DNA of 64,000 nt, taken from the NCBI GenBank assembly GCA_902799835.1, contig CADCCF010000005.1, forward strand, positions 58,813 through 122,812, in the 5' to 3' direction. Both the position numbers and the translations under genes were made by a program. Shown in pieces: positions 1,640 to 51,080 of the stretch (within the stretch, counting starts at the first letter, position 1; every line of letters starts with the position of its first letter). The notes under the pieces are model-generated. The model had not been told where the DNA came from, did not search any database, and saw only the letters and a list, made by a program, of their open reading frames with translations. Source of the DNA: an uncultured Pseudomonadota bacterium. GTDB lineage: Bacteria > Pseudomonadota > Alphaproteobacteria > RF32 > CAG-239.

Positions 1640-1718
1640 TCAGACGATACGAAAAATCGTTTTATTTCAATGGGTTGTGTATTTTCACAGCCCATTTTTT
1701 TGTTTCACATAATATTCA
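1628..1718 (+). repeat. attL: rpsI 3' end + terminator repeat
   Basis: Matches 28246..28336 over ~91 bp with few differences. Confidence 0.92.
1670..1701 (+). terminator. Intrinsic terminator of rplM-rpsI
   Basis: ATGGGTTGTG-tatttt-CACAGCCCAT hairpin followed by T7. Confidence 0.85.
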
Positions 1719-1788
1719 CATAACCCTTGACAATTCTAATTTACTAATTTACCATTTTCACATAATCTTCACAGTTTTTATGGTAAAA

Positions 1789-19966: not shown

Positions 19967-20251
19967 TTTTTTTATTCCTATTTATATACTTGTTTTTTCT
20001 TCAAAATATGATTTTTATGTGATTACCTGCATTTTCTGATATTTTACTTTATGCTTGAGTAAAAAACAATAAAATTTCTATCTGATTCAATCTATTGAAT
20101 TTAAAAGAAAATCATGCAAAAACATGGACTTAAGTGTATTTTTTACTAAAAAAGTGCTTGACATGTGGATTCGGGCATGATTCTATATACTCGTAAAGTG
20201 AATTTATAAACCAACTTGTCCCACTTTAAGCGGACTAAAAGGAGAATTAAG

Positions 20252-20776
20252 ATGACTAACCCTCAAGACGCATTGCGTCAGCAATTAATGCACGCACTAC
20301 ACAATGACGATTTTTCAAGCGTAGATAATCTTTTACAACAAGGTACAAATGTAAATTTACCATACAATCACCACGGATGGACACCATTTATGTGGGTTTG
20401 TAAGGAACATTGCAATCCCGAGATAATTACCAAGTTTTTGATTCGTGGCGGTAAGGTTGATAAAGCCAACAAACACGGCAAAACACCTCTGCATATTATG
20501 GCAAGATATAGAAGCTCATTTGATTGCTTACAGATTTTGTTAGCCAACGGAGCTAATCCGAACGCTCAAGATGAAGACGGCAACACTCCATTGCATATTG
20601 CCGTATCCCACGTTCAAGCCGATATTCGTATGGATGTTATATGGAATTTGTTCCTTAAGACAGATGATACCATCCGCAACAACGAAGGCAAGACCGTTTA
20701 TGACCTTGCTAAAGAAAATCCATATTTTACTGATAGAGAAGTCTTAAAGATTATGAAGGAGAGCGTTGATGCCTAA
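20252..20776 (+). CDS. Ankyrin repeat protein
   Basis: GWTPFM, GKTPLHI, LLANGANPNAQDEDGNTPLHIA, GKTVYDLA; RBS AAGGAG before ATG 20252. Confidence 0.9.
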   Translation: MTNPQDALRQQLMHALHNDDFSSVDNLLQQGTNVNLPYNHHGWTPFMWVCKEHCNPEIITKFLIRGGKVDKANKHGKTPLHIMARYRSSFDCLQILLANGANPNAQDEDGNTPLHIAVSHVQADIRMDVIWNLFLKTDDTIRNNEGKTVYDLAKENPYFTDREVLKIMKESVDA

Positions 20777-21095
20777 TACAACAGAAATAGCTCTTCAAAA
20801 CGATAACTTCCGTAAGCATTTATCTAAAGGAACTCTTGTTCTAACTCAAGGCATCCGTTCTAATACAACTGAAGACATCCAAGCAATCATAACCCAAGTC
20901 AGGACTTTTGATAAATTTGATGAGAATAATGACCCTTACAATGAACATGACTTTGGAGCCTTTGATTATAAGGGTAAGAAGGTTTTCTGGAAGATTGACA
21001 ACTATGATAAGGCGTTCTTGTATCTCTCGCCAGATGTATGCAATCCAAAGCTAACCAACAAAGTGCTAACCATAATGTATGCGGAGGAATATTGA
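20769..21095 (+). CDS. DUF3768 domain protein
   Basis: NDNFRK, FDENNDPYNEHDFGAF, FWKIDNYD, VLTIMYAEEY. Confidence 0.88.
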   Translation: MPNTTEIALQNDNFRKHLSKGTLVLTQGIRSNTTEDIQAIITQVRTFDKFDENNDPYNEHDFGAFDYKGKKVFWKIDNYDKAFLYLSPDVCNPKLTNKVLTIMYAEEY

Positions 21096-21096
21096 G

Positions 21097-21681
21097 ATGA
21101 CTAACTCGGAATTTGTTGATGATAAGAAGATTAAAGACATTTTGGCTTATGTCAGCACTATGAAGCACGCTGAACAAATTAGAATGATGTTCCTTTGCAG
21201 CCTAAATGGCTTGAGAAGTATTAATTTCACTTACCTTCAGGTCAAAGATTGCTATACCGAGCAATTAAAGCCAAAGGATGTGATTAACCTTGATTATGAT
21301 AAGAATAAAGGCAAGCATAGCTGTTCATACTTCTTAAATACCCAGATGAAGAAGGAGTTTGCCGACTATTTGAAGTATCTGCAGAATAAATGGGGAGATG
21401 GCTTGAGCCCTGAAACATATATCTTTACATCCCAGAAGCTCAATAAACCCTATAACCGAGTAAGTATCAGCCGCTTGTTCAGTTCAATTTATAAGAAATT
21501 TGGGATTAAAGGAGCAAGCCATTTAGGGCGACATCTGTTTGTAAGCAAGTTAGTCAATGCAGGCGTTAATATCTGTTTGGTTCAAAAGCTTGCTAATCAT
21601 AGAAACATTGGGACTACCCAGCATTATTTTAATTATAATGAGAAAATGTTAGCTAATGCCGTGGAGAATACGAAGATATAG
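21097..21681 (+). CDS. Small tyrosine recombinase (catalytic domain only)
   Basis: NGLRS (R), KNKG (K), SHLGRH (HxxR), LANH (H), TQHY (Y); ~194 aa, no arm-binding domain. Confidence 0.85.
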   Translation: MTNSEFVDDKKIKDILAYVSTMKHAEQIRMMFLCSLNGLRSINFTYLQVKDCYTEQLKPKDVINLDYDKNKGKHSCSYFLNTQMKKEFADYLKYLQNKWGDGLSPETYIFTSQKLNKPYNRVSISRLFSSIYKKFGIKGASHLGRHLFVSKLVNAGVNICLVQKLANHRNIGTTQHYFNYNEKMLANAVENTKI

Positions 21682-21682
21682 T

Positions 21683-22060
21683 ATGAAAACAGTAGATAGA
21701 GTTTGGTTTTTAAGCCATTGCGAATGGATTTACAACAATCGGCACAGGTTAGAAAGCATACCTTGTGCCGATTTTGTACTGACAGGATTTGTTATCAATT
21801 CCTTCGGATGCCCGTATTACGGCTATGCGATTGATAAAATAACTCTCGGGAACTTAATAAAACTATGGAATAATGGCTTTGTTTATAAAGATTTACCGCT
21901 AATTCATTACCGAATTTCGCACGGTGACAGTTCCACAAATATCGCTTACATTTATCGTGGAAAAGTTTTTAACCACAGATTTCCTTATTCAGATCCAGAC
22001 AGATTCATTCCAACGGAAGACGTGAGGAAGATTTTAAAAGAGTTGAGAAAACAAAAGTAA
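21683..22060 (+). CDS. Hypothetical protein
   Basis: ATG two bases after recombinase stop; operonic. Confidence 0.6.
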   Translation: MKTVDRVWFLSHCEWIYNNRHRLESIPCADFVLTGFVINSFGCPYYGYAIDKITLGNLIKLWNNGFVYKDLPLIHYRISHGDSSTNIAYIYRGKVFNHRFPYSDPDRFIPTEDVRKILKELRKQK

Positions 22061-22070
22061 ATAAAACAGA

Positions 22071-22802
22071 TTACTTAACAAACTTTGCAGCTTCTTCCAA
22101 TATATCCATTTGTCTTTTTGTAAATATCTGCCAACCATTATTTACGGTATTATAGATAAAAGTTTCTCTGGTAATTTCAAAAAAACAAGCTTGTCCCTGG
22201 ACCTTTTGCGGAAGGAAACAATACAAAGGAAGTCTTCTAGTATCAACTAAATCACCTTGTTTAGGCATTCCTAAAAAATCAAACACAACAGGAACAGTAG
22301 AGGAACTCCAATCATTTGTTATTATTTCTTCGGAACAATAAAATTTATATATATTGATAACACCAGGTTGATGAGATATTAAAGTTGTTCTTCCCTTAAG
22401 AAATTTACTAAAATCTCTCTTCCTTCTTGTTCCATCAACAACCCAAACCATATCTTTATAAAATTTTTCTCTAGATAACCTTTCTTGCGGTGTTATAGAG
22501 GAATGTTGAAATTCTATAGTAAGACCGTTTGGCAGATGTACATCAGCTATATGCTTTTCTTTTGTTATATCATTATTCATTACAATTTCTTGATATTCTT
22601 TGGGAAATTTATCTTTCCAAGCCAAATGCCAATTAGTCTCATTTTCCCACCACTTATCACAATCATTTAAAGACTTATGCGCCCAATGATTAATTTTTTG
22701 TGCACCGCACTTTGCAATTACAGGCGCATGACAATATGGACATAACCCTTTTAACTTCGGCTCGGCTTCACATCGTTCATTGTTTACAAGTGCAAATCGC
22801 AT
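22071..22802 (-). CDS. CoiA-like PD-(D/E)xK nuclease
   Basis: CPYCHAPVIAKCG..KINHWAH, WHLAWK, HIADV, IEFQHSSI, MVWVVDG. Confidence 0.85.
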   Translation of the reverse strand: MRFALVNNERCEAEPKLKGLCPYCHAPVIAKCGAQKINHWAHKSLNDCDKWWENETNWHLAWKDKFPKEYQEIVMNNDITKEKHIADVHLPNGLTIEFQHSSITPQERLSREKFYKDMVWVVDGTRRKRDFSKFLKGRTTLISHQPGVINIYKFYCSEEIITNDWSSSTVPVVFDFLGMPKQGDLVDTRRLPLYCFLPQKVQGQACFFEITRETFIYNTVNNGWQIFTKRQMDILEEAAKFVK

Positions 22803-22825
22803 TGTGTTAACCTATAATTTTGTTA

Positions 22826-23407
22826 TTATTTAAGAAAATCAGGAATTTTTCCGCATTCTTTTGTTACTTTTTTATTTAATTCATCTTTAGAAAAATCTTT
22901 AGATAATGTTTCTATATCAACAAGATATTTTACAAAGTTTGTAGCATAACAATCACAGAATTTTTCACCTTTTTCATGTTTTATTGTATTAAAATCACTT
23001 ACACAAGCATTGTACATTCTTTGATATTTGTCGTATATTCTTTCCTGAATATCTTCTTCAGTTTTAGGGTTATCCTTAAATTCAAACCTGATAGAGGGTA
23101 CAGTTTTAAGTGTATTTTGCTTGTTTGTATACTTATATACACCATTTTGTACTGCGCATTTATTAGATGGTATCTTGACCTCCATACCATCATAATAATC
23201 TTTATCCAAAAGATTTTCTATATAATACAATTGATTAGATGAAGAACAACCATCCCAAATTGTACATTCATAAGCCAAGGCTCCATCATTTAATGCTTGA
23301 AGAACTTCAAATTCACGTACAGCCAAACAATCTTTATTATCACTCATAATAGTTACTGTTGTGCATCCAGTTACGAGCATTGCCGCAAGTACTAATATTT
23401 TTTTCAT
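22826..23407 (-). CDS. Lipoprotein, hypothetical
   Basis: MKKILVLAAMLVTGC lipobox. Confidence 0.75.
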   Translation of the reverse strand: MKKILVLAAMLVTGCTTVTIMSDNKDCLAVREFEVLQALNDGALAYECTIWDGCSSSNQLYYIENLLDKDYYDGMEVKIPSNKCAVQNGVYKYTNKQNTLKTVPSIRFEFKDNPKTEEDIQERIYDKYQRMYNACVSDFNTIKHEKGEKFCDCYATNFVKYLVDIETLSKDFSKDELNKKVTKECGKIPDFLK

Positions 23408-23480
23408 AGCATACCCCTTATATAAAGTTATAATTGTGAAGTATTACACATAACCTATAAAATACAAGATATTTTATTGC

Positions 23481-23525
23481 AAAATGTTAAACTTTCCTCT
23501 CCATCCCGACAAAGTTTAACATTTT
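23481..23525. repeat. Inverted repeat, 15-bp arms / 15-bp spacer
   Basis: AAAATGTTAAACTTT-cctctccatcccgac-AAAGTTTAACATTTT; same arm core as 23583 and 25019 sites. Confidence 0.8.
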
Positions 23526-23537
23526 TTATTTTGCAGT

Positions 23538-23617
23538 ATTTGAGCCGATTTCAAAGTCCTATATTTTCCGCCACTTCCGAAGAAAATGTTAAACAATATA
23601 CCTTCTTTAACATTTTT
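23538..23617 (+). repeat. 80-bp degenerate direct repeat copy 1 ending in palindrome with 6-bp spacer
   Basis: AAAATGTTAAACAA-TATACC-TTCTTTAACATTTTT; aligns without gaps to 24975..25054. Confidence 0.85.
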
Positions 23618-23746
23618 AGATTTTAAGGATAAATTTTACTTTTTATGCAAAAATATGATTAGAAAATAAAGTTTTTTATATTTTTCTAAAAAACTTCTTG
23701 AAATCATAAAGTTTTTTATATATATTAAATATAAAGGAGAAAAGCT

Positions 23747-24961
23747 ATGATAGATAGACCATTATATTTAGACAAGCTGATATCTTGGAAAGATAAAGAC
23801 ACAATTAAGGTTATTACAGGTATCCGCCGCTGTGGTAAATCCAAAATATTAGAAAGTTTTGCTGAAAAATTAAAAGCTCAAGGTGTAAGTGAAAAACAAA
23901 TCATTCAACTGAATTTTGAAGAAATGGGCGATGAACAAATTACTGATGCTAAAACTTTGCATGACAGAATAGATGCACAGCTCAAAGCCAATAAAAATAA
24001 AATGACCTACATTATGCTTGATGAAATACAAAAGATACCGGAATGGGAAAAGGTCGTTGCATCACTTCGCTTAAGAAAAAATGCTGATTTATATCTGACC
24101 GGTTCAAATGCGTATATGCTATCATCTGAATTGGCAACATTCCTTTCAGGACGGTATGTAGAAATCAAAATGCTTCCATTGTCATTTAAGGAATTTTTGA
24201 CTTTCCACAAGTTTCCCGAAAATATGTCGTTGGAACGCAGACTAGCGTTATATACCAAATTTGGCGGTATGCCATCTCTAAAAGATTTTAATTTTGATGA
24301 AGGTCAATCTTATGAAATTCTTGATGGTATATATAACACAGTATTAGTAAAGGATGTTACTTCAAGAGCAAAAACAACAAATACTGCAACATTAGAAAAA
24401 ATCATACATTTTCTGGCTGATAATATCTCAAATATAAGCAGCACCAACAATATTACGAATGCGCTTTATTCGGCTAAAAGTATTGAGAGTAAAAATAATG
24501 CTTATGTTGAAGGATGTATAAGCCTTCTGGAAAAAGCCTTCATTTTTTATCCCATCCGGCGTTATGATATAAAAGGAAAAGAATATCTGCGCAGCTTAGA
24601 AAAATATTACATTGTTGATAGTGGGCTACGTTATCGTATATTAGGAAGAGTATCAGATAATGGCAGAATATTAGAAAACATAGTATATTTTGAACTTTTA
24701 CGCCGAGGATACAATGTTGCTATCGGCAAATATGATGACAAAGAAATAGATTTTATTGCAACCAAACAGGATGAAAAACTATATATCCAAGTCAACGATA
24801 AAATGGATAGGACAAAAACAATAGAAAGGGAATTAGGCTCATTGCAACAAATAAGGGATAGTTTTCCCAAAATGGTGCTGACAAACGATGAACTAGCCGT
24901 CGGTAGCACAGATGATGGTATTAAAATTGTATCTCTGGTTGAGTGGCTAACTCAAGATTAG
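23747..24961 (+). CDS. AAA+ ATPase (AAA_14) with DUF4143 C-terminal domain
   Basis: ITGIRRCGKS Walker A, IMLDEIQ Walker B, LTGSNA, KYYIVDSGL, LENIVY, EIDF. Confidence 0.92.
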   Translation: MIDRPLYLDKLISWKDKDTIKVITGIRRCGKSKILESFAEKLKAQGVSEKQIIQLNFEEMGDEQITDAKTLHDRIDAQLKANKNKMTYIMLDEIQKIPEWEKVVASLRLRKNADLYLTGSNAYMLSSELATFLSGRYVEIKMLPLSFKEFLTFHKFPENMSLERRLALYTKFGGMPSLKDFNFDEGQSYEILDGIYNTVLVKDVTSRAKTTNTATLEKIIHFLADNISNISSTNNITNALYSAKSIESKNNAYVEGCISLLEKAFIFYPIRRYDIKGKEYLRSLEKYYIVDSGLRYRILGRVSDNGRILENIVYFELLRRGYNVAIGKYDDKEIDFIATKQDEKLYIQVNDKMDRTKTIERELGSLQQIRDSFPKMVLTNDELAVGSTDDGIKIVSLVEWLTQD

Positions 24962-24974
24962 GATACAGCATTAA

Positions 24975-25054
24975 ATTTCAGCCATTTTCAAAACTACATA
25001 TTTTGTGGGTTTTCAGAAAAAAATGTTAAAGAATATATCTTCTTTAACATTTTT
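24975..25054 (+). repeat. 80-bp degenerate direct repeat copy 2 ending in palindrome with 6-bp spacer
   Basis: AAAAATGTTAAAGAA-TATATC-TTCTTTAACATTTTT (perfect 15-bp arms); offset 1437 bp from copy 1. Confidence 0.85.
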
Positions 25055-25340
25055 CACCTGTAATATAATTTGAATTAGTATAAGATAGATTATATTAATA
25101 AGAAGTGGGGACGAAATTTATCGGCAGAACAAAAACACTCAAAAATATTGGTGCTGGTTAAGGGGTTGAACAGGGAATTATAAATTGTTTATAAAATAAT
25201 TTTCAAAAAAAGATATTGACACTATAAAATTTTGCTTTTACTATAGAACATAATAAGAACAAAGCAGCGATGAGATTAAAGGTGTAAATCAAAATGTATC
25301 AATTAATATACTCAAAAACTGTTAACTTAAGGAGCTCCCT

Positions 25341-26882
25341 ATGAAAAAAATAAAATTAAATATCAAAAAAAAGCACGTTTATACGGGATTAATTGTTTTT
25401 GCTTTATGTATAAGTGTAGGAGGTTTTCTTAATGTTTTTTTGAATAAAAGTACAAAATCCTACGAGTATAATAATATTTATTGTAAAACGAATGAATATG
25501 GTATTTCTGTTTGTAAAGATAAAAATAATGGTCTTATAAACGGGATAACAAAGCTTTATTATGAAAGTGGAAAAGTAGAGTTTGAAGCAAATTGGAAAGA
25601 CGGAAAACATCATGGTCCATTAAAACGCTATTCTGAAAATGGAATTTTGTTGGAGGAAATACCATTTGTTGATGGAAAACGGGAGGGAGTTGGAAAATCA
25701 TATTATAATGATGGGCAATTGCAAAGAGAGACAACATATAAAAATGATAAAATAAAGGGGCAAGCCAAGGAATATTATAGAGATGGTATCTTAAAGAGTG
25801 TAGAAAATTTTGAGGATGTGCTATTAAACGGAGTAGCTGAATATTATAATCAAGATGGAATTTTGATTGTTTCAACAAATTATATTGATGCTCAACAAGA
25901 TGGAGTTAGAAAGGAATATTATGATGATGGAAAGTTAAAATCTGTTGCAACATGGAAAAAAGGTAAACTTGATGGTGAAGGAAAATCATATTATCGTAAT
26001 GGAATACTTGAAACAGACTATCTTTTTAAGGATGGCAAAGAAAATGGAATATGTAAGCAGTATTATGATAACGGAACATTAAAATCTGAAGTATCTTGGA
26101 AAAATGGCAAGCAAGATGGAATATATCAAGAGTTTGACCAGTACGGAAATATTGTGATAAAAGGATTTTTTGTTGATGGAATGAAAGAGGGTATAGCTAA
26201 ATTTTATGATCAGCACGGCATATTGAGAAGGGAAATTCCCTATCACAAAGATAAAGCAGAGGGAATATCTAAAGATTATGCTGAAGACGGCTCGTTATTA
26301 GGCGAAACAACATGGAAAAATAATCTCCAAAATGGTATTTTGAAAGTATACTATAGGAGTGGTTCTTTATATGGTGAAGCCGAGTATAAAGATGATAAGC
26401 AAGAAGGAAGAAGCAAAACCTATTATGAAAACGGACAGTTGAAATCAGATGAAAATTGGAAGAGTGGAAAGCCGGATGGAAAGTTCGTATATTATTACGA
26501 AAATGGAAATATTGAAAGAGAAATCATATTCAGTAATGGAAAAGAAAACGGAAAATTTAAAGAATATTATGAAAAAGGTCAATTGAAGACAGAAAAAAAT
26601 ATGATTAATGGTCAGGAAGACGGTGAAGTTATTTTATATTATAAAAACGGAAAAAAAGAAGCAATTTTGGCTTATAAAAAAGGAAAAGAGAATGGGATAA
26701 GTAAAAGATATTATAAAAATGGTAATATAAAAAGTGAATATTCATATCATGATGGTAAAAAAGAAGGGATTGGAAAAATATATTATGAAAATGGAAAATT
26801 ACAATCGGAAGAAGAATGGAAAGAAGGTAAACGTACCAAGGTGTTAAAATCTTTTGATAAAAAAGGAAAGGCTACAAAATAA
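25341..26882 (+). CDS. MORN-variant repeat protein (YwqK antitoxin-like), membrane anchored
   Basis: N-terminal TM then many ~24-aa G..K.YY.NG.L..E..(W/Y)K.GK repeats. Confidence 0.9.
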   Translation: MKKIKLNIKKKHVYTGLIVFALCISVGGFLNVFLNKSTKSYEYNNIYCKTNEYGISVCKDKNNGLINGITKLYYESGKVEFEANWKDGKHHGPLKRYSENGILLEEIPFVDGKREGVGKSYYNDGQLQRETTYKNDKIKGQAKEYYRDGILKSVENFEDVLLNGVAEYYNQDGILIVSTNYIDAQQDGVRKEYYDDGKLKSVATWKKGKLDGEGKSYYRNGILETDYLFKDGKENGICKQYYDNGTLKSEVSWKNGKQDGIYQEFDQYGNIVIKGFFVDGMKEGIAKFYDQHGILRREIPYHKDKAEGISKDYAEDGSLLGETTWKNNLQNGILKVYYRSGSLYGEAEYKDDKQEGRSKTYYENGQLKSDENWKSGKPDGKFVYYYENGNIEREIIFSNGKENGKFKEYYEKGQLKTEKNMINGQEDGEVILYYKNGKKEAILAYKKGKENGISKRYYKNGNIKSEYSYHDGKKEGIGKIYYENGKLQSEEEWKEGKRTKVLKSFDKKGKATK

Positions 26883-26892
26883 TATACAATTT

Positions 26893-26948
26893 ATCGTTTT
26901 ATATCAATGGGTTGTGGATTTTCACAGCCCATTTTTTTGTTTCACATA
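26893..26948 (+). repeat. Third, partial copy of the att/terminator repeat
   Basis: ATCGTTTTATATCAATGGGTTGTGGATTTTCACAGCCCATTTTTTTGTTTCACATA matches 1656-1711; lacks the rpsI core. Confidence 0.85.
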
Positions 26949-27011
26949 GGCTTGCATTCTGAGGTTTTGTTACCTAACTAAAGAGTATAAACTTTAGATT
27001 AGGAAAGAACC

Positions 27012-27479
27012 ATGACCGACAAAGAAACTTTACCCCTTAAAGCGGCACGCAAGTTAAATATGCTGATTATGCATAACAATGCGTTGGCAAAAGATAAAAG
27101 CCTGCAAGAAAAAATAATCGCTTGGGGCTTAGATATGTTGGAAGAAGCCCATGCCGATTGGAGCGATATGCTAGCAACAACGTTGGATTCTGTTATAAAG
27201 ATTCATCAAAGAACGAATGCTCGTATGGGAGGCATAGAAAGAGATAAGAAATATATACAATTTAGAGAAGAATTTGCAAAAATACAAAAAGAATATTTTA
27301 TAAGGGCATATCAAAATAATCAAAAATTAACAGCAAATAGCTTTGTTGAATGGTTTATAACGAATAAAGCTAAAAAAATAAAGATTCCATACGTTCCTCA
27401 AAACCAAAAGAATAAATTAAGACAACTTGCACAAGCTAATAATCGTGAATTTAAAAAGCTTTTGCTTGGCAAAAGCTAA
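27012..27479 (+). CDS. Hypothetical protein
   Basis: 155-aa ORF with AGGA RBS. Confidence 0.65.
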   Translation: MTDKETLPLKAARKLNMLIMHNNALAKDKSLQEKIIAWGLDMLEEAHADWSDMLATTLDSVIKIHQRTNARMGGIERDKKYIQFREEFAKIQKEYFIRAYQNNQKLTANSFVEWFITNKAKKIKIPYVPQNQKNKLRQLAQANNREFKKLLLGKS

Positions 27480-27566
27480 ATTTTAGCAAGCTATAGGGCA
27501 TAGACAAGATATTCTCTGAAACGCTAAAGTTAAAATCTAATATTAACTTAAAAAAGGAGCAAAAAT

Positions 27567-27806
27567 ATGCCAAATCCGCTTTTATGGCCAGTTGTAAGGC
27601 AACTTGCAAAACAAGCAGCGATGCCTAAAACATTAAACAAACATGAAGATCTAGTTGTCAAGGAGATGAGTAATAGGAATTCTCCAATGCACAAAGATGT
27701 ATCAAAATGGACAGATAAAGACTTTAATAAAGCCCTATCTTCTCCATCATTTAAATACAATTATACTTTACAAAATAAAGCTAGGCAGTATATTAAAAGA
27801 AAATAA
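27567..27806 (+). CDS. Small basic hypothetical protein
   Basis: AAGGAG RBS; 79 aa. Confidence 0.6.
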   Translation: MPNPLLWPVVRQLAKQAAMPKTLNKHEDLVVKEMSNRNSPMHKDVSKWTDKDFNKALSSPSFKYNYTLQNKARQYIKRK

Positions 27807-27832
27807 TGTATACTTAATAAGGGATATGCAAA

Positions 27833-28108
27833 ATGCAAAGATTATGGACAACAGCAAGACAAATAGTTATCTTTTTTACCCTATGGGTATTTGTTATATG
27901 GTTTAGTGCTGAGATAATTTTTGCATTGTTTAAGAATGACCAAAGTGTTTCAGAAGATGATTTGCAAGGTGCTGCCTGTATCTCTTTTATTTTAGTTTAT
28001 GCCATTATTAAGCCCATAGCTTCTCGCTATAAATTAAAATTATGGATTAAGTATATTCTATATTTTGTAATTTATACGGCTTTATTTCTTTTGTTTTCTT
28101 TTATGTAA
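27833..28108 (+). CDS. Small 3-TM membrane protein
   Basis: Three hydrophobic segments; 91 aa. Confidence 0.6.
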   Translation: MQRLWTTARQIVIFFTLWVFVIWFSAEIIFALFKNDQSVSEDDLQGAACISFILVYAIIKPIASRYKLKLWIKYILYFVIYTALFLLFSFM

Positions 28109-28245
28109 TTAACTCTATGATAAAAAGTTAGATTAATGCATCTTTGCGAGATAATACTGATTTTATACCATTCACAGCATCTTCACATAGAATTTTTAAG
28201 GATGTAATATATTGATTTTGCTATATAAAAACCTTTAGTGCTTTA

Positions 28246-28336
28246 TCAAAACGTTAATCAGACGATACAGAAAAACGTTTATTTTCAATTGGTTGTGGAT
28301 TTTCACAGCCCATTTTTTTGTTTCACATAATATTCA
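28246..28336 (+). repeat. attR: copy of rpsI 3' end + terminator
   Basis: Matches 1628..1718. Confidence 0.92.
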
Positions 28337-28386
28337 AAGATTGGTTTGCTCATGCCGATAAGGCAGAATACCGCCAAGACTTTTAT
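28330..28386 (+). pseudogene. Fragment of a paralogous integrase gene
   Basis: Translates IFKDWFAHADKAEYRQDFY versus IYNEWFSRAEKSEYRKDFY in the island integrase (nt ~2029-2085). Confidence 0.75.
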
Positions 28387-28528
28387 ATTTCGTTCACTGC
28401 GGCAATCAGCTGATCGCTGACCGGTGCGCTGCCGCTCACCTTTGCCTTGTAGTCAAACCCACTTTTTCGTGGGTTCTTATCCCAACTTACCCAATAAAAA
28501 AACCTTCCACGAGGGAAGGTTTTTTTAT
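28387..28528. other. tRNA-trailing structured element (Lys copy)
   Basis: Shares TTCGTT(T)CAC and GCyTTGwrGTyAAACC motifs with 49445-49608 and 45020-45157; includes tRNA terminator hairpin 28491-28531. Confidence 0.65.
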
Positions 28529-28604
28529 TGGTGAGCCCGGCGGGATTCGAACCCACGACCCTTTGATTAAAAGTCAAATGCTCTACCTACTGAGCTACGA
28601 GCCC
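28529..28604 (-). tRNA. tRNA-Lys(TTT)
   Basis: GGGCTCGTAGCTCAGTAGGTAGAGCATTTGACTTTTAATCAAAGGGTCGTGGGTTCGAATCCCGCCGGGCTCACCA, 76 nt, encoded CCA. Confidence 0.97.
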
Positions 28605-45019: not shown

Positions 45020-45157
45020 CGGCTTTAAAGTCTACCGGCGTATTATCATTCGCTTTTGCCTTGAAGTTAAACCAGTTTTCTCGCAGGTTCGAGCCCTCAG
45101 CTTTCGCTGTTCAACAAAAAAATCCCGCCACAAGTGCAGGATTTGTTTTGTTGGTCG
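45020..45157. other. tRNA-trailing structured element (older, diverged Pro-type copy)
   Basis: CGCTTTTGCCTTGAAGTTAAACCAGTTTTCTCGCAGGTTCGAGCC...terminator-like hairpin...TTGGTCG parallels 49509-49614; left boundary uncertain. Confidence 0.65.
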
Positions 45158-48100
45158 AGCATAATAGCCTCGTTTCGTGCTGAAAATTATGATGAATATA
45201 AGCAGTTAGCCTGTAAAATAGCTGACTTCAAGCAATTAAGAAAATGCTGAATAAGGAAAGAATTTTATAAAAAAGTACTAATATTCGGAAATTATTCGGT
45301 AAGGATTTCAGAATTGCTTTTTCGAAATTTTTTGACAAAATTGACAAGATGTGATAATATGATGTTATATTATTTTTAACCTTTTTTTCTATAAAATACC
45401 TACAAGGGAGAAGATATATGGCTGTTAGAACAAGAACAAAAGGTATATCTTTGGACACATTTAAGGGTATAAAAAAAGAGAATGAAGAACAAGCCGTCCA
45501 AGATATTAAATTATTTATAGAATCTATTTCAGACGATTGGAGTCACGATAATGAATACGCTTGTGAAAAAGCGTATAGTATTTTAACAAATTTTACTATT
45601 GAACATCCCAATTTAGCAGAAAAAACTCTTCCTTTATTTAAGGAAGTTGCAATGAAAAGCGGTGGTATGGGAACTCAGTATTATTGGGGTTATCCTTTTA
45701 ATAAATTGTCCGAGTTAATGGAAAAAGTTCCTGATAATATCAAACCTCTTGTCTTAAATGCGTTTAAAGAAGTAAGAGATACACCAATCGCTGAAAAAAA
45801 TACAACAGCAAAAAGAGTAGCATTATCAAAACTTACAAGCATGTTTAAGGTAGATAGTCCACATAATGAGCAAATAATAGATATATTAACCCACATCAAT
45901 GGAAATGACAGAACACGTGCACTATTATACGTTCCTTCTGCTATTGTTCCTCAATTTGCACAAGAGATGCTAGATATTGCAACCAAAAGTTCTCAAGCTA
46001 CCTTGGCATTAACAATTGCGACTTTATGTCCGGATATGACGGATAAAGCACTGGATGTTTTTGATAATATTAACAATAATTCAGATAAAATTGGTCATTT
46101 TTATGATGAAATATCAAAAGCAATTTTAAACAAACCAGAATTAACTGAAAGATTATTAAAATCGTATAAGATTCTTTTTTCAAAACCTAATGAATACAAG
46201 ATGGGGCTAGATGGATTTATATACCTTTCAAAAATAGCCGAAGAGCAACCTTTATTTCATGAAGAAATTTACGATATAATATGTACAGGATTAAAAAATC
46301 CGAGTATTGATGATGATTGTCAGAAAAAATATGCATATTCTGCTCTTGAAAAGGTTGCCTTATCAACTCCTGATTTGGCTTATAAAGTTCTAGATATATT
46401 TGCTGTAGAACTGCAATCAGATAAGATGGACGAAAAAAACTTTAAGCAAATAATAGACAGTATAATCAAAATTAGCGAACTACAACCCTCATTAAACAAC
46501 AAGGTTTTCGAGCTTTCTAAATCCCTTTATGATGCAAATGAATCTTATGCATCAAGTAGACTGATGTCCAAATGTATTCAAAATAATCCTAATTTAGCAA
46601 ATAGTGCTATTGAAGTTTTAGAAAAAAATAGTACAGAAACTCAAGGTTCATTAATTGCAACACATCGCGTAATTAACACAATTGCTAGTGCAAACGAAAA
46701 TGTATCACTTGAAATTTTAAGGATCTTAAAAAAGACATTAAAATCTCCTTATAATGACAGTTATACTTTAGAGCCTACTTATAAAGCATTGCAGACAATA
46801 TCAAAAAACAATCCCAAATTAACAAAAGATGCTCTTTCCTTATATAAAAGCAGCCTACATGGATATGTTAGTGATTCAGAGTTACGACAAGGTTATAGAT
46901 TTGCCACAGATATATTGCTAAATAGCCCTGAATATACCTCTGGAGCTATAGATCTTTTTAATACAGCTTTAATGTCTACTTCTAGTCGAATATATGAAGA
47001 TGATACTTTTAAATTTGCCTATAAGTGTTTAAGTCAATTAATAAAAGAAAGGCCCAATCTTCAGCAAGAATTATTTGATTCTTTTAAACTTGGACTGCAA
47101 AATAAAAGAAATAATGCAGCATCTTTAGATACAGCTTATGAACAATTAGCGTTAATACTTGATTCACAACCTCAATTAGCAAAAAAATGTGTTGAAGTAA
47201 TTGATATAGGCGTTCAATCTTCTAAAAATGAATTTTATTCTTTGCAACGTGCAACAGAAATTCTAAAATATATAGCTAAAGACCATCCAGAACTGGCTAG
47301 TGATATTCTCAATACAAGTAAACATTTAACAAAAGATCATAACCTGCCACTTTATAAAGCCTGTATGAAGCATTTGCCATTAGAAGAAACAATTGCTAAG
47401 CACCCTGAAATTGAACAGGACTTGCGAGTAGCTCATAAAGCAAGATTTGCTAACGATCATGAATTTGAATATGCTTTAGGTAACTATGATAAAGAAACTT
47501 TAATTGAGACAAATATCTTTTCAGCACAACAACGTGTCATGAATATTTTATTTTCCACATCGGCACAAGAGGCCGGAATCAGTAAAGAAGACGCTTTAAA
47601 CTTCCGTAAACCAGATGCTCCGAATGCTGTAACAGATTATATGGCATCAAATCAAGATTGGTTAATACCGGCAAGTTTTAAGGGGGCTGCTATTTTTAAG
47701 GAATATTTCCCAGCATATATTAAAACAATTCAAAATCATAATCAAAAAAATCCAGAGGATAAAATATCTATCCACGATGCGGTATATTGGTTACCGGAAC
47801 CAATGAATAAAGAAGCAAATGCTCGTTTTTCAAAATTTATTCAGAGAAATATAGTTTATCAAAATGCAGAACACAAAAATGTGCATCGACCATTTAATGA
47901 ATTAGCTATGATCTCAAGAAATTGGCAAGCCGTTGAAAAAAAACTAGCTCAGGCAGATGAAAATTCTGATATTACTAAACTTAAATATAATGATATTTTA
48001 TCAATCTGTATGAGTGTCCGATATGAAGATCAACGCAATGATGCTTTTGCGGTAGAAGCAGCAAAACATGGTGTGCCTGAAGAAAATTATCATAATTGTG

Positions 48101-49431
48101 AAGATATTTATTTAGCTGGCTTGAAAGTGCCTGAGCCGTTCGATAGTAAAAAGGAATTTAAGGAAGGTAAGTATACAGGAAGATTTTTGCCACGAGATGA
48201 TGTCCGCACTGGATTTTTCGGTGACTATACAGATTGTTGTCAGCATTTTGGTGGCGTTGGAGATGCTTGTGCCGTTTCTACAGTTAAACATCCTTTCTCT
48301 CAATTATTTGTTATTGAAGATGAAAAAGGTAAAATTGTTGCCGGCAGTTGGGCTTGGGAAAATACAGAAGGAAAATACCGAGAGGTTTGTTTTGATAATA
48401 TTGAAGCAATAGGAGAATTTTCCGAACATCCGATGGTCAATAAGATTTATGGTCAAGTTGGAGATTATTTAGCAAAAGAACAAAATTGCCGTAAAGTTAC
48501 AATAGGTTTAGGCTATCAAGATGCTGATGTAACTGAATATAAAGCTACAGAATCTATAAAATTACCAAAACTTTATGGTAACGATGGAACAGATGATTAT
48601 TCTGACTCGTATTCACAAGTTTTATTAGCAGAAAATCCAAATGCTAAGCCATTAGATAAGACACAAGAAAGCCAGCGTTATATTCGTGATGTATGCTTTT
48701 TGGACATGTCAGCAATGGATAGAGTTTCAGAAGTGGTTTTTCCTGACGGAGATAAACAACTTCAAGCACCGGAAAATATGGCTGGATTTGTTGTTGAGGA
48801 CAGAGAAAAGGGTGTCGTTGGCTACTGCTTATATGATAAAGAAAAAAAATCGATTTATGACATGGCTGTTTTACCGGAATATCGTAAAGATAAAAACGCC
48901 TCTTCACGTAAATTATTTGCAGAAATGATGCGTGTTATCAATAAAGAAGGCGGTGAGTGGAGTGCAGAAATGCGTGATGAAACAACGTTAAGGTACCTTA
49001 AGGTGATGGCGGAAAGAGGTCTTGTCAGTTATGAGGAGCATGGTGTTGACCATGTTATGAGTGATGGAACAAAAGTTGTTGCTGTTACTTTTAGTCCTGT
49101 TTCAGAAAAAGTCCGACAATTAAAACAAAGAATTGAAAAGAATAATAACGGTAATAATGAAAAAACTGAACTTGAAAGTAATGCAAGTACCAAAAGTGAA
49201 AATTCTGAAGTTAAAAGGAATAAATCTAATAATGTTTTAAGTAATGCTCAATCTAATGTTTTAGGAGCATGAATTTTTCTGAACATCTACATGAGTTCGA
49301 AACCTGATGAGAGAAACCAATTTTTGAAACTTTTAGTTTCGAACTGCATTTTAGACAACAAAAAAGCTAGGATTTCTTTGGCTAAACCATTCGATTTGCT
49401 CTTGAAAAATCCTAGCTGTCCAATGTGGTCG
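45152..49431. mobile_element. ~4.3 kb non-autonomous serine-recombinase-type element inserted in a tRNA-Pro 3'-end copy
   Basis: TGGTCG core at 45152-45157 and 49426-49431; recombinase C-tail split across the two ends. Confidence 0.72.
45418..49272 (+). CDS. 1284-aa protein: HEAT/ARM-like repeats, central CCQ-motif domain, C-terminal GNAT-like domain
   Basis: Repeats such as AYSALEKVALSTPDLAYKVLDIF; GDYTDCCQHFGGVGDAC...GSWAW...VCFDNIE; GVVGYCLY...IYDMAVLPEYR. Confidence 0.8.
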   Translation: MAVRTRTKGISLDTFKGIKKENEEQAVQDIKLFIESISDDWSHDNEYACEKAYSILTNFTIEHPNLAEKTLPLFKEVAMKSGGMGTQYYWGYPFNKLSELMEKVPDNIKPLVLNAFKEVRDTPIAEKNTTAKRVALSKLTSMFKVDSPHNEQIIDILTHINGNDRTRALLYVPSAIVPQFAQEMLDIATKSSQATLALTIATLCPDMTDKALDVFDNINNNSDKIGHFYDEISKAILNKPELTERLLKSYKILFSKPNEYKMGLDGFIYLSKIAEEQPLFHEEIYDIICTGLKNPSIDDDCQKKYAYSALEKVALSTPDLAYKVLDIFAVELQSDKMDEKNFKQIIDSIIKISELQPSLNNKVFELSKSLYDANESYASSRLMSKCIQNNPNLANSAIEVLEKNSTETQGSLIATHRVINTIASANENVSLEILRILKKTLKSPYNDSYTLEPTYKALQTISKNNPKLTKDALSLYKSSLHGYVSDSELRQGYRFATDILLNSPEYTSGAIDLFNTALMSTSSRIYEDDTFKFAYKCLSQLIKERPNLQQELFDSFKLGLQNKRNNAASLDTAYEQLALILDSQPQLAKKCVEVIDIGVQSSKNEFYSLQRATEILKYIAKDHPELASDILNTSKHLTKDHNLPLYKACMKHLPLEETIAKHPEIEQDLRVAHKARFANDHEFEYALGNYDKETLIETNIFSAQQRVMNILFSTSAQEAGISKEDALNFRKPDAPNAVTDYMASNQDWLIPASFKGAAIFKEYFPAYIKTIQNHNQKNPEDKISIHDAVYWLPEPMNKEANARFSKFIQRNIVYQNAEHKNVHRPFNELAMISRNWQAVEKKLAQADENSDITKLKYNDILSICMSVRYEDQRNDAFAVEAAKHGVPEENYHNCEDIYLAGLKVPEPFDSKKEFKEGKYTGRFLPRDDVRTGFFGDYTDCCQHFGGVGDACAVSTVKHPFSQLFVIEDEKGKIVAGSWAWENTEGKYREVCFDNIEAIGEFSEHPMVNKIYGQVGDYLAKEQNCRKVTIGLGYQDADVTEYKATESIKLPKLYGNDGTDDYSDSYSQVLLAENPNAKPLDKTQESQRYIRDVCFLDMSAMDRVSEVVFPDGDKQLQAPENMAGFVVEDREKGVVGYCLYDKEKKSIYDMAVLPEYRKDKNASSRKLFAEMMRVINKEGGEWSAEMRDETTLRYLKVMAERGLVSYEEHGVDHVMSDGTKVVAVTFSPVSEKVRQLKQRIEKNNNGNNEKTELESNASTKSENSEVKRNKSNNVLSNAQSNVLGA

Positions 49432-49437
49432 GATTGA
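49273..49437 (+). pseudogene. C-terminal remnant of a large serine recombinase
   Basis: IFLNIYMSSKPDERNQFLKLLVSNCILDNKKARISLAKPFDLLLKNPSCPMWSD*, matching the recalled LSR tail (SS..E...L..V.SN..L......L.KPF..L....W) that reads into att. Confidence 0.7.
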
Positions 49438-49444
49438 CTGGACT
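49426..49444 (-). repeat. 19-bp duplication of tRNA-Pro 3' end
   Basis: TGGTCGGATTGACTGGACT identical to 49609-49627. Confidence 0.92.
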
Positions 49445-49608
49445 GACTTCGTTTCACTTCGTCGCCCCTGCGCTCATCGCCTTAACGGCGACCGCGATAC
49501 TCTCGTCTCGCTTTCGCTTGTGGTCAAACCAGCTTCTCGCCGGTTCGAGCTCCATGCTATCGCATTCAAGACACAAAAAAAACCGCCATAAAGGCGGTCT
49601 TTGTGTCT
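49445..49608. other. tRNA-trailing structured element (Pro copy), bounded by tRNA 3'-end direct repeats
   Basis: GC-rich hairpins; contains terminator 49567-49610 and inverted T-arm copy 49537-49554. Confidence 0.7.
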
Positions 49609-49685
49609 TGGTCGGATTGACTGGACTCGAACCAGCGACCTCTTCGTCCCGAACGAAGCGTTCTACCAGGCTGAACTACAATCCG
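49609..49685 (-). tRNA. tRNA-Pro(CGG)
   Basis: CGGATTGTAGTTCAGCCTGGTAGAACGCTTCGTTCGGGACGAAGAGGTCGCTGGTTCGAGTCCAGTCAATCCGACCA, 77 nt. Confidence 0.96.
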
Positions 49686-49751
49686 TTTGTCTTTCAACTC
49701 GCCTATTGATACCACATTTTTTTATCTTGGCAAGTAAAATTTTCAAAAAAA

Positions 49752-51080
49752 TTATTTTTCTTGCCATTTTTTTGTTTTCATATACCAATAAGGAATCAAG
49801 AACGATATGATATTATATAACAAGTCTGAGTAATAACACCAAGCAACTTCCGCATTACTTATACCAATAACCATTCTTACTGTACCGGCATAAAAAACTA
49901 TACTGCAAATCTCGATCATGAAAGCTACTTTAATTTTATCTGCTCCATACAAAGCATAGAAATATACATACTCCGGCAACATAATGGAATTAGCGATCAG
50001 CATAACATACAGTGGTTTTACAGCATCATTTATCAGCAGGCTGTCATTGGTAAAAATTCTCAAAATTTGTTCCGGAAATATTGCTAAGGTTAAAAGAATT
50101 GCAAAAAATGGCAATGCGCCTAATTTGATAATTCGTGTTAAAGTTGGTAATATTTCATTATCTTTTTTTGCTCCGATAAGATTACCGGTAATTGATATGG
50201 TAGCAATACCCAAAGCATTAGCCACTATGCAGGCAATACTGTAAAGTGATTTAACAACATTGGATATAGCCAAAGCTTCAACCCCTAGTTTTTCAACTTC
50301 AACATAAAAATAAAGCCATGATCCCCAAGAAGCTAAATTTAAAATTATGAGGTAATTTGCTTTACCGATAACTTGTTTAAATATTCCAACATTTAATAAA
50401 GTAAATTTGTTAAAACCGAATTTATGCCAATCTATTTTTAGCATAACATAGATAATCAAATATACAAAAGCTATTACCTCAGATAATACTGATGCTAAAG
50501 CTGCACCTTTTAATCCCAAGGGTTCGATTCCCCATCCTCCGAAAATAAGCCACCAATCAAAAAAGATATTGGAAACTAATAAAATTACTGAGGCAATAGC
50601 AATGCTGTGAGTAGTATTTATAGCCACTAAAAAACCTTCAAACATTGATTTTATGCCGGAGAAAAGCAAACCAAAACACCTGGGGAGTAAATAAGTTAAT
50701 GTTGCAATTTGTAAAATATCACTTTGAACCATTATTCGTAAAATTGGATCGGTTGCTAAAATAACCATTACTATTGCTATAATTGAAATTAACATAACAA
50801 TATTGTTAGTTGCCCAAAAAACTTGTCCGATATTTTTTAGTTTCTGTTTGCCACAACCATTATATTGTGACATTATAATTTGTGCTCCGGTGATAAATGC
50901 TTTTTCTAACATGAATATAACTAAATAAATTAATCCGCCGATAGCACAAGCACCCAATTCTACTTCGCCGACATGGCCCAAAAATATAGTATCGGTGGTG
51001 CCAATTAAAGTTTGGATCACCATGCTTAAAATTAGTGGCCAAGTGATATTTGCAATTTTGCGATAAGAATAAGTTATCAT
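49752..51080 (-). CDS. MATE family efflux transporter
   Basis: WPLILSM...DTIFLGHVG..ELGA, LIFGGWGIEPLGLKGAALASVLSE; 12 TM. Confidence 0.92.
   Translation of the reverse strand: MITYSYRKIANITWPLILSMVIQTLIGTTDTIFLGHVGEVELGACAIGGLIYLVIFMLEKAFITGAQIIMSQYNGCGKQKLKNIGQVFWATNNIVMLISIIAIVMVILATDPILRIMVQSDILQIATLTYLLPRCFGLLFSGIKSMFEGFLVAINTTHSIAIASVILLVSNIFFDWWLIFGGWGIEPLGLKGAALASVLSEVIAFVYLIIYVMLKIDWHKFGFNKFTLLNVGIFKQVIGKANYLIILNLASWGSWLYFYVEVEKLGVEALAISNVVKSLYSIACIVANALGIATISITGNLIGAKKDNEILPTLTRIIKLGALPFFAILLTLAIFPEQILRIFTNDSLLINDAVKPLYVMLIANSIMLPEYVYFYALYGADKIKVAFMIEICSIVFYAGTVRMVIGISNAEVAWCYYSDLLYNIISFLIPYWYMKTKKWQEK

Follow-up and report, generated by a model that had tools for sequence, protein, structure and literature searches.

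Integrative islands and prophages with a tyrosine integrase, such as P4-type islands and tycheposons, insert in the 3′ part of tRNA genes, where they cross over in the T-loop or the anticodon loop. In the sections of the study on which we draw, such elements supply a replacement 3′ end, are bounded by a direct repeat that runs to the CCA and stack at the gene, with newcomers beside the tRNA and older elements pushed outward; their integrases are usually specific for one tRNA (10.1101/2020.12.28.424599). Gene-less DNA is also described at such sites: the part of PMC5704250 used here presents cis-mobilizable elements (CIMEs) that lie between attachment (att) repeats at a tRNA 3′ end and form tandems with functional elements. 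Short units with a comparable placement occur in the 64,000-nt stretch analysed here (the window), which belongs to contig CADCCF010000005.1 of an uncultured alphaproteobacterium. Like the islands, they are inserted in the 3′ part of a tRNA gene, seem to supply a replacement 3′ end, have a direct repeat to the CCA and stack beside the tRNA. Like CIMEs, they are gene-less and found between att-type repeats, in tandem with functional elements.

A first-pass annotation of the window had proposed that three such units, one behind tRNA-Pro, one behind tRNA-Lys and one at a third place, form a family of gene-less elements combining a constant scaffold with an arm matched to the adjacent tRNA. Our analysis establishes that the units are polymorphic insertions with an exact boundary, target-matched arms and a conserved, strand-specific fold, that they accrete in tandem and that they have spread between species. 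In the reading that we prefer, and to which we assign a probability of about 0.4, they would be a non-autonomous integrative cassette, mobilised in trans through an exchange of strands between positions 57 and 58 of the tRNA (57|58), the folded strand acting as the att structure.

Polymorphic insertions behind tRNA genes

The genome that carries the window (G000; handles in G, C and L denote genomes, contigs and loci) comprises 1,507,260 bp in 7 contigs, with a GC content of 38–39% and a completeness of 99.86%, and contains 42 tRNAs and one permuted transfer-messenger RNA (tmRNA). Two of the tRNA genes lie in the window, both on the minus strand. ARAGORN, Rfam, a mean column identity of 69% among the three aligned units and the scores of a covariance model (R1, built from 13 clean copies in the tRNA sense) confirm tRNA-Pro, tRNA-Lys and the three units where the first-pass annotation had located them. 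R1 gives 83.7 bits to the Pro unit; the parts of the three loci are as follows, in window positions.

49609–49685, minus: tRNA-Pro(cgg), intact (ARAGORN; Rfam tRNA, 65 bits)
49609–49627, minus: proximal repeat copy, the last 19 nt of tRNA-Pro, tRNA positions 58–76 (repeat mapping)
49567–49608, minus: the Pro unit's own intrinsic terminator (A-run, GC hairpin, T-run), beginning right after the CCA
49549–49566, minus: Pro-unit spacer, a degenerate inverted copy of the 3′ part of the T-loop, the 3′ strand of the T-stem and the acceptor strand
49524–49548, minus: Pro-unit hairpin H, with the complement of tRNA 57–49, a 5-nt loop and a direct copy of 49–58 (GCTGGTTTGA)
49445–49523, minus: Pro-unit conserved core, with CYACAAG, a three-way junction and a GTGAAACGAAGTC tail whose final pyrimidine abuts the repeat (model R1)
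49514–49517 with 49472–49475, minus: helix P1 of the Pro-unit core
49494–49511, minus: helix P2 of the Pro-unit core, then GGT
49478–49490, minus: helix P3 of the Pro-unit core
49426–49444, minus: distal 19-bp direct repeat, the displaced original tRNA 58–76, final CCA exact
49360–49417, minus: native tRNA-Pro terminator, a long hairpin gctaggattt...aaatcctagc with a T-run, displaced 183 bp by the insertion
28529–28604, minus: tRNA-Lys(ttt) (ARAGORN, Rfam)
28379–28528, minus: second unit, behind tRNA-Lys (R1, 100.1 bits)
28492–28528, minus: Lys-unit terminator, followed by a degenerate spacer
28453–28476, minus: Lys-unit hairpin H; the core carries the Watson-Crick variant of P1
44991–45165, minus: third, orphan unit (R1, 62.4 bits)
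45112–45151, minus: orphan-unit terminator, preceded by CGACCA and followed by a spacer
45067–45090, minus: orphan-unit hairpin H, followed by the core

The 19-bp repeat TGGTCGGATTGACTGGACT is exact at both 49426–49444 and 49609–49627 and equals tRNA positions 58–76. The duplication of the tRNA-Pro 3′ end noticed at first pass thus holds in both copies; it bounds a unit that, counted with one repeat, measures 183 bp and contains no credible open reading frame (ORF), those that cross it being mechanical only. On the integrative reading, the proximal 58–76 of tRNA-Pro would be the copy supplied by the cassette. A terminator scan returned a terminator-like site at 49602–49578 on the minus strand of the Pro unit, and related terminator sequences are carried by units at other tRNAs. 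The two other units of the window are less complete: for the Lys unit a second 19-mer copy is absent from the window at up to 3 mismatches, and the orphan unit has neither a tRNA (ARAGORN) nor a distal repeat, only the CGACCA before its terminator. The motif TTCGTT(T)CAC, taken at first pass as the start of two units, is present, but it corresponds to the core tail as it appears on the opposite strand.

Empty alleles, which the first-pass annotation had suggested looking for, were found when the tRNA-Pro locus was searched in 56 genomes of the genus. In G051 (L166) and G045 (L173) tRNA-Pro is followed directly by the native terminator. In G000, G022 (L159) and G014 (L160) a unit and the 19-nt repeat stand ahead of that same native terminator; the unit of G014 is a different variant, and G054 has two units in tandem at tRNA-Pro. 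The unit is an insertion and not ancestral sequence, and the existence of empty and occupied alleles, together with the lack of a credible ORF, upholds the description of a gene-less element.

The insertions have moved between species. The Pro units of G000 and G054 are 99.4% identical (163/164, terminator included), whereas the 900-nt flank across the tRNA is only 68% identical, which contradicts purely vertical descent. A Lys-ttt pair gives 98.6% for the unit versus 89% for the flank and an Asn pair 97.1% versus 77.4% (flanks were compared for 14 pairs, 4 of which set a genome against a second retrieval of itself). In each of the 17 unit pairs at or above 90% identity both members are at the same tRNA, and no recent jump to a new tRNA is seen among them. 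The first-pass suggestion that the element is retargetable to different tRNAs therefore stands as regards the range of targets, at least 26 anticodons being used, and fails as regards recent retargeting. Core identity is only slightly higher at the same tRNA (69%) than at different tRNAs (66.5%), and the nearest core in another genome shares the anticodon in 31/120 cases versus 5.7% by chance. In G000 the units at Val-tac and Pro-cgg have nearly identical cores with different arms and terminators. Over time, then, loci exchange modules.

Family, target matching and core fold

A profile of the three units matched G000 26 times (E < 0.001, at least 60 profile positions covered), nearly always next to a tRNA 3′ end and with a constant orientation. 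The covariance-model scan proposed at first pass, done here with R1, yielded 21 copies in this genome, 18 of them directly behind a tRNA, far beyond chance; the other three are the second unit of a tRNA-Glu-ttc array, a unit at the far end of a 16-kb island of tRNA-Gly(ccc) and the orphan of the window. Counting all core types together, approximately 25/42 tRNAs of G000 are occupied by our count, since the same layout is also found with other cores: one type at Ser-gct, Asn and Gln-ttg, others at Thr-ggt, Gln-ctg and Glu-ttc. Among 146 R1 hits in the loci of relatives, 104 sit 34–70 nt behind a tRNA on the same strand, 16 at 181–282 nt (second in an array) and 7 further away, while 19 have no tRNA in the fetched stretch; the distant hits that were inspected are outer array members or lie beyond an inserted island. 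In these loci at least 26 anticodons are occupied, and none of the 146 hits has cargo between hairpin and core. Units also stand in tandem arrays of the same period.

R1 hits were obtained in 24/24 other species of the genus and in 110/120 other genomes of the family (22/23 genera), versus 0/16 genomes representing 16 other families. When species genomes were scanned for the motif, at least 118 stretches came up and, among the matches listed, nearly all come from gut or rumen records titled uncultured Alphaproteobacteria, Rhodospirillales or 'Azospirillum sp.'. Cross-phylum spread was rejected on the six loci checked from bins with non-alphaproteobacterial labels: L053, L078 and L116 are chance motif matches (GC 46–65%, no full unit), and L051, L091 and L082 are short low-GC contigs with real units, two of them beside tRNA-Pro, that are probably mis-binned. 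A parent phage or plasmid was likewise discarded, as the 4 hits of a motif scan of viral contigs are all chance matches inside ORFs (0/4 real units). Many R1 hits fall within a few hundred bases of contig starts (e.g. G013:C18:179–276, G014:C5:185–281 and G023:C21:1–93); units and arrays thus probably break short-read metagenome assemblies.

At least three further core types share the layout of terminator, inverted T-stem hairpin, structured core and repeat to the CCA, with no match in Rfam (G000 C4:10459–10720, C5:167332–167600 and C7:36180–36430; relatives' loci L169, L174, L183, L184 and L186). One of them, at tRNA-Pro(cgg) in other species, forms a unit of approximately 240 nt whose repeat begins at position 52/53. 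Some cores (L163, L164, L170 and G000 C6:92227–92297, at tRNA-Ala-ggc) are cut inside or just after P2 and run on into unrelated gene-bearing DNA, with break points that vary by locus. The tmRNA of G000 is a permuted two-piece gene (C1:27663–28144, tag ANDNNVAPVALAA) with no unit behind it.

Read in the tRNA sense, the order of parts is tRNA 1–76, terminator, degenerate spacer, hairpin H, CYACAAG, the P1/P2/P3 junction, the tail and a copy of 58–76; across units, H consists of the complement of 57–49, a 3–7-nt loop and a direct copy of 49–58. The insertion point is between T-loop positions 57 and 58, and the repeat begins at 58 (or 59) and runs to the CCA. In G000, 18/42 tRNAs have an exact repeat of 12–19 nt located 141–177 nt downstream, starting 12 to 19 nt (mostly 18–19) before the tRNA end. 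Over 120 tRNA–unit pairs from G000 and its relatives, the 19-mer agrees at 19/19 positions in 47 pairs, 18/19 in 22 and 17/19 in 9. The boundary is exact: identity ends at position 58 in 78/78 units with at least 17/19, and the base before 58 in the unit is a pyrimidine in all 78 (T 44, C 34), whereas the tRNAs carry a purine at 57. The spacing is uniform as well, with the repeat 125–185 nt behind the tRNA in 82/83 units having at least 16/19.

That the variable part tracks the adjacent tRNA, as claimed at first pass, is borne out by the hairpin. Its copy of the 5-nt T-stem 5′ strand is that of the cognate tRNA in 86/111 parsed units, with one mismatch in a further 17, versus 6.1% for non-cognate pairings, and 23 different T-stems are represented. 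The accompanying claim of an inverted T-arm copy has to be narrowed. The complement of the T-stem 5′ strand is exact in 73/111 units, that of the 3′ strand in only 11/111 (4.2% by chance), and the 'inverted T-arm' is the inverted T-stem 5′ strand with the first bases of the T-loop. The first-pass annotation had named a lack of further copies, a match in Rfam and arms that do not covary with the tRNA as results that would speak against the family; what was found is many further copies, no Rfam match and covarying arms.

Copying of the arms from the target at insertion was tried as the main route and set aside, since the inverted spacer is degenerate even in units whose repeat is perfect (19/19). 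Whether hybrid tRNAs could prove a cassette origin of the 3′ end was also considered. Mismatched stems occur in 39/219 tRNAs, but those inspected recur across species (Arg-acg in 7/7), so that they do not date an insertion. The tRNA-Arg(acg) of G000 (C1:47648–47724) and of 6 relatives' loci has the T-stem GTGAG / CCCGC, with an A·C mismatch at 52·62 in 7/7 genomes, and a T-stem mismatch is also kept in several other tRNAs (e.g. elongator Met, and Arg-ccg in some species).

The core, of approximately 75 nt, is predicted to form a three-way junction. In 119 copies aligned to R1, an alignment that is itself fitted to the model, 84.8% of the paired cells are paired versus 69.6% in shuffles (0/500 shuffles reach the observed value), and changes on both sides of a pair amount to 286 cells versus 86 expected; slid controls gave 20–45%. 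Helix 1, which is hairpin H, is paired at 97.6% over the 119 copies, yet its covariation is trivial because it follows the tracking of the tRNA, and P1, P2 and P3 are therefore the informative helices. The inner two pairs of P1 are tandem G·A/A·G in 84/119 copies and C-G plus A-T in 25–26/119, and the base of P3 alternates likewise (G·A in 36, A·G in 33). P2 is closed by C-G and bears a GNRA tetraloop in 74/114 distinct units (GGAA 35, GGGA 23, GAAA 9, GAGA 5, GCAA 2). The tRNA-sense strand is marked by one hairpin pair that appears as G·T in 55 units and as A·C in 2. The Pro unit gives a fold z-score of −3.21 in the tRNA sense versus −0.36 on the other strand; the Lys unit, with its Watson-Crick P1, folds well on both strands, with H and the three-way junction recovered. 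When the period is permuted (58–76, terminator, spacer, hairpin, core), a long arm capped by the terminator, the hairpin and the core are predicted with both RNA and DNA parameters, the spacer of the Pro unit extending the terminator hairpin; z-scores for 15 units range from −3.4 to −10.2, as measured against mononucleotide shuffles with the terminator included. These data support a core that is a conserved fold of the tRNA-sense strand, and the constant scaffold proposed at first pass is thereby recovered as a fold common to the 119 copies. GNRA-like loops and tandem G·A pairs are stable in DNA too, so that the same signals fit an RNA and also a defined DNA single strand.

Known RNA families offer no match. 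With Rfam 15 only tRNA exceeds the threshold in the window, and at E up to 10 over 49380–49700 there is nothing on the core, the only additional hits being sub-threshold ones on the terminator. A hammerhead ribozyme was examined because CUGAUGAG...CGAAA occurs in a few units, and was rejected, since CUGAUGA lacks conservation, with GAAUGAG common in its stead, no fitting stem III can be drawn and Rfam is silent.

The features of the core bear directly on the possibility, in our view an unlikely one, that it is a functional RNA made in the tRNA direction, with the DNA cassette as its vehicle. In one form it would be a guide-type scaffold followed by 19 nt of target (58–76), on the plan of the right-end RNA in TnpB elements; a nuclease or recombinase would be guided by it to tRNA alleles that are empty, and the universal T-loop TTCGA would take the role of adjacent motif. 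The GNRA loops, the tandem G·A pairs that alternate with Watson-Crick pairs, the excess of G·T over A·C, the one-sided folding of the Pro unit and a core that abuts exactly 19 nt of target all agree with such an RNA. So do two contigs from RNA libraries: one of 178 nt, from a metatranscriptome, covers 49447–49624 with one difference, nearly one full unit period, and a second matches the core of another unit. These are assembled contigs of public runs, which display neither strand nor ends, and DNA is possible in RNA libraries; two DNA runs from other studies hold the Pro unit, one with the tandem arrangement. In RNA run X20, among the matches listed, one contig covers the unit and none covers 48900–49432 or 49638–50100, gaps that we do not count as specific expression because coverage holes prove nothing. 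No circular or excised form, that is, no joint across the Pro unit, is present among the assembled contigs listed. Several points oppose the RNA: the tRNA promoter is separated from the core by a strong terminator, a simple scan of window units detected no promoter-like site in either, neither an Rfam family nor a known ribozyme gives a match at E up to 10, single-stranded DNA also forms stable GNRA-type loops and G·A pairs, and G000 has neither a Y1 nor an IS110-type transposase, its TnpB signal being limited to one sub-threshold hit of 19 bits.

Candidate enzymes and modes of movement

In our preferred reading, an integrative cassette of approximately 140–180 nt plus a 19-nt repeat would home to one phosphodiester of tRNA genes, T-loop 57|58. 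It would supply a replacement tRNA 3′ end (58–76) and its own terminator, by which the tRNA would stay functional, while the original 58–76 would be moved downstream. The rest of the cassette would be a hairpin made of the left flank of the target (49–58) and its complement, followed by the core, which would end exactly at the crossover. Integration and excision would proceed by conservative strand exchange at 57|58, catalysed in trans, most likely by a tyrosine recombinase of the kind that places gene-carrying islands at the same T-loop site. By analogy with attC and with the folded attP of the CTX phage, the folded tRNA-sense single strand, with hairpin and core flanking the crossover, may serve as the att structure. 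By our derivation, an antisense single-strand exchange at 58|57, with the recombinase on the shared 58–76 side, would yield the parts in the order observed. What we infer in this scheme is the enzyme, the single-stranded intermediate and the route to new tRNAs.

G000 encodes six tyrosine recombinases: an XerD-like and an XerC-like protein, a 384-aa integrase, a 200-aa fragment and two further proteins of 505 aa and 503/528 aa. None of the six reaches the cut-off of the integron integrase model TIGR02249 (265 bits), the best score being 129 bits for the XerD-like protein. As regards IMEX, Xer-dependent elements whose attP resembles the host dif site, XerC- and XerD-like genes are present, and inspection by eye found no AT-rich stretch resembling a Xer arm in the units. 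Integrase islands share the site. Outside the window, at C3:91908–108200 (L010, L025), a 16-kb island occupies the T-loop site of tRNA-Gly(ccc); it lies between the tRNA and an older unit, and island and unit each end in the last 16 nt of the tRNA, which indicates that integrase elements and cassettes share the site and stack; L129 shows the same layout. The island of tRNA-Gly(ccc) starts with the 505-aa tyrosine recombinase (weak DUF6538 N-terminus) and a C5 cytosine methylase, and has no cassette core at either end. The motifs TGATGCAA / TGGTGCAGA are repeated near both of its ends.

Such islands are also relevant to the idea that the units are decayed, CIME-like att scars of integrase islands or prophages, or a vertically inherited terminator or insulator module of the host. 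We regard this as the most improbable of the explanations examined, even though integrase islands do use and stack at the same site, the part of PMC5704250 used here treats CIMEs as decayed elements that keep attL and attR, and the unit family is old and found almost throughout the bacterial family that hosts it. Scars would hardly be so uniform in size (125–185 nt in 82/83 units), nor would they present one covarying fold at at least 26 tRNAs with no gene remnants, and the 16-kb island lacks such a core at either end. No full-size element with hairpin and core was found, neither among the viral hits (0/4 real) nor among the 146 hits devoid of cargo. The placement of the insertion ahead of a pre-existing native terminator also speaks against this explanation.

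Other recombinases and neighbouring genes of the window were recorded as well. The 503-aa tyrosine recombinase (1675–3186, plus strand) is of a sporadic type, found in 7/61 genomes of the family, and a few kb away lies a small serine recombinase (5220–5816, minus strand; Resolvase, 100.9 bits), one of three serine-recombinase hits in G000. Behind the Lys unit an island-like region of approximately 8 kb (20216–28400), for which the distal tRNA-Lys repeat was not found, encodes an ankyrin-repeat protein, a DUF3768 protein, the 200-aa integrase catalytic fragment, a CoiA-like nuclease, an AAA_14/DUF4143 ATPase and a MORN-repeat protein. Between the orphan unit and the Pro unit (45418–49272, plus strand) there is a 1284-aa ORF with only a sub-threshold Pfam hit, INTS1_R4.

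A number of observations weigh against the integrative cassette. One core serves at least 26 anticodons, even though integrases of tRNA-targeting elements are usually specific for one tRNA. A double-stranded attP needs no strand-specific fold with GNRA loops and G·A pairs, which are hallmarks of RNA, and the 178-nt metatranscriptome contig may point in the same direction, DNA being possible in such libraries. The complement of 58–76 is degenerate, which means that the units do not maintain a complete duplex mimic of the target. The reading does not account for the rewriting of three arm segments when a new tRNA is colonised, nor is any recent retargeting seen. As to the enzyme, a tblastn search with the six tyrosine recombinases against 159 loci (941 kb) around relatives' units gave a hit at one locus, and the accessory integrase types are sporadic (20/56, 16/61 and 7/61 genomes), none being family-wide. 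Of the co-occurring recombinase or HUH gene envisaged at first pass, no recombinase linked to the units or family-wide was found, and the HUH searches in G000 with working controls were negative.

In G000 there is no reverse transcriptase (PF00078; controls positive in 3/14 genomes), no Y1 transposase (PF01797; 6/14) and no IS110-type recombinase (PF02371; 6/14), and neither Relaxase nor Rep_trans was found. The single TnpB hit (PF07282, 19 bits versus a cut-off of 26.3) contains two stops, in a search that did not treat IscB separately, and the search for Y2_Tnp was uninformative, its controls being silent.

These negative results fit homing without a dedicated enzyme. After DNA uptake by transformation or gene-transfer agents, host homologous recombination would bring the unit into the empty cognate tRNA, using the tRNA body as left arm and the distal 19 nt as right arm; the fold would loop out the cassette and mask the internal copies of 49–58 and 58–76, leaving the outer arms to pair with the recipient. 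Near-identical units amid flanks of 68–89% identity, always at the same tRNA, speak for such a route, as do the predicted folds of the permuted units with either set of parameters, and no linked or family-wide recombinase, reverse transcriptase or tested HUH family competes for the role. We nevertheless think it distinctly unlikely: an arm of 19 nt is very short for RecA-dependent exchange, the sharp boundary with its invariant pyrimidine (78/78) looks like a rule for a cleavage site rather than the end of homology, and the first arrival at at least 26 tRNAs would remain unexplained.

A further candidate is a nicking HUH-type enzyme working by peel and paste, as in IS200/IS605 and their miniature derivatives. 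The nick would fall at 57|58, in the loop of the single-stranded T-arm hairpin, the same context being recreated at the junction of core and 58; the unit would be released in circular form, and the tRNA would be joined again to the distal 58–76. The target is indeed a hairpin loop with a conserved pentanucleotide, both junctions precede the same 19 nt and follow a fixed boundary, the structure is strand-specific, and excision would restore an exact empty site such as those of G051 and G045. With Y1_Tnp, Relaxase and Rep_trans all missing from G000, Y2_Tnp uninformative, and different bases before the two cuts (purine at tRNA 57, pyrimidine in the unit), we judge this very unlikely. Rolling-hairpin replication was dismissed, as the inverted copy of the core that it calls for does not exist.

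Beyond the question of the enzyme, the units might represent a new class of mobile DNA: a gene-less cassette of approximately 165 nt whose whole sequence is one single-strand fold mimicking its own attachment site, with a terminator-capped arm bearing the spare tRNA end, a target-copied hairpin and a three-way-junction arm at the crossover. Such a cassette would home to the T-loop by host or borrowed enzymes, or by none, and could be retargeted by rewriting its arms, as an integrase-free counterpart of integron cassettes with tRNA genes as platform. We put this forward tentatively, the odds being against it, and treat with similar reserve the suggestion that the mechanism is new in kind. If it were true, a family of gut and rumen Alphaproteobacteria would carry a mobile element of a design not described before, gene-less, base-exact for the T-loop of most tRNA genes, provided with a conserved folded core, repairing its target on insertion and crossing species. 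It would raise the question of which enzyme, if any, recognises a DNA or RNA structure shaped like a T-arm, and would provide a naturally occurring model for small insertions at tRNA genes that are programmable and leave no scar. In these bacteria the regions downstream of tRNA genes are not 'intergenic noise', and the partial tRNA ends found there are not ordinary prophage scars.

Comparison with known systems

The absence of any match in Rfam, together with literature searches that found no published description of such cassettes (supplementary files not being covered), agrees with the first-pass view that this is not a named family. Compared with the tRNA-targeting islands and prophages, the units have no integrase or other gene, measure approximately 165 nt instead of kilobases, use the same core at at least 26 anticodons (18 tRNAs in G000 alone) and place a strand-specific folded core and a target-derived hairpin at the crossover. 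CIMEs are decay products of varied size and content, whereas the units are uniform, keep their structure across 22 genera and spread on their own.

Transposon-related systems share single traits with the units. Miniatures of IS200/IS605 (PATEs, REPINs) are also gene-less structured repeats placed by a short target motif, and those move as single strands; the guide RNA of TnpB, too, has a scaffold directly followed by the flanking target. The units differ in that G000 has no Y1 transposase and only a sub-threshold TnpB hit, in carrying a 19-nt target copy and a terminator, and in being confined to tRNA genes. Miniature inverted-repeat transposable elements (MITEs) are likewise short, non-coding, multi-copy and flanked by direct repeats, but the units have no terminal inverted repeats, their ends being the terminator and the core tail; their internal inverted repeat is derived from the target, their 19-nt repeat ends at the tRNA CCA, and no parent insertion sequence was found. 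Terminator-targeting group II introns of class C and retrons would call for a reverse transcriptase, and IS110/IS1111 elements with bridge RNA for a DEDD/Transposase_20 recombinase; G000 has a match to neither.

Integron attC cassettes and CTX-phage-type elements come close in another respect, being small and accreting in arrays at one chromosomal site. As in the units, they have an imperfect palindrome in which structure is conserved rather than sequence, and comparable strand-specific signals are predicted for the units. The units, in contrast, have no integron integrase and target the tRNA T-loop rather than attI or dif, and their palindrome is copied from the target and accompanied by a 75-nt three-way junction at the crossover. 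In its working the cassette resembles both a tRNA-targeting integrative element and an integron cassette, yet it fails the defining tests of each.

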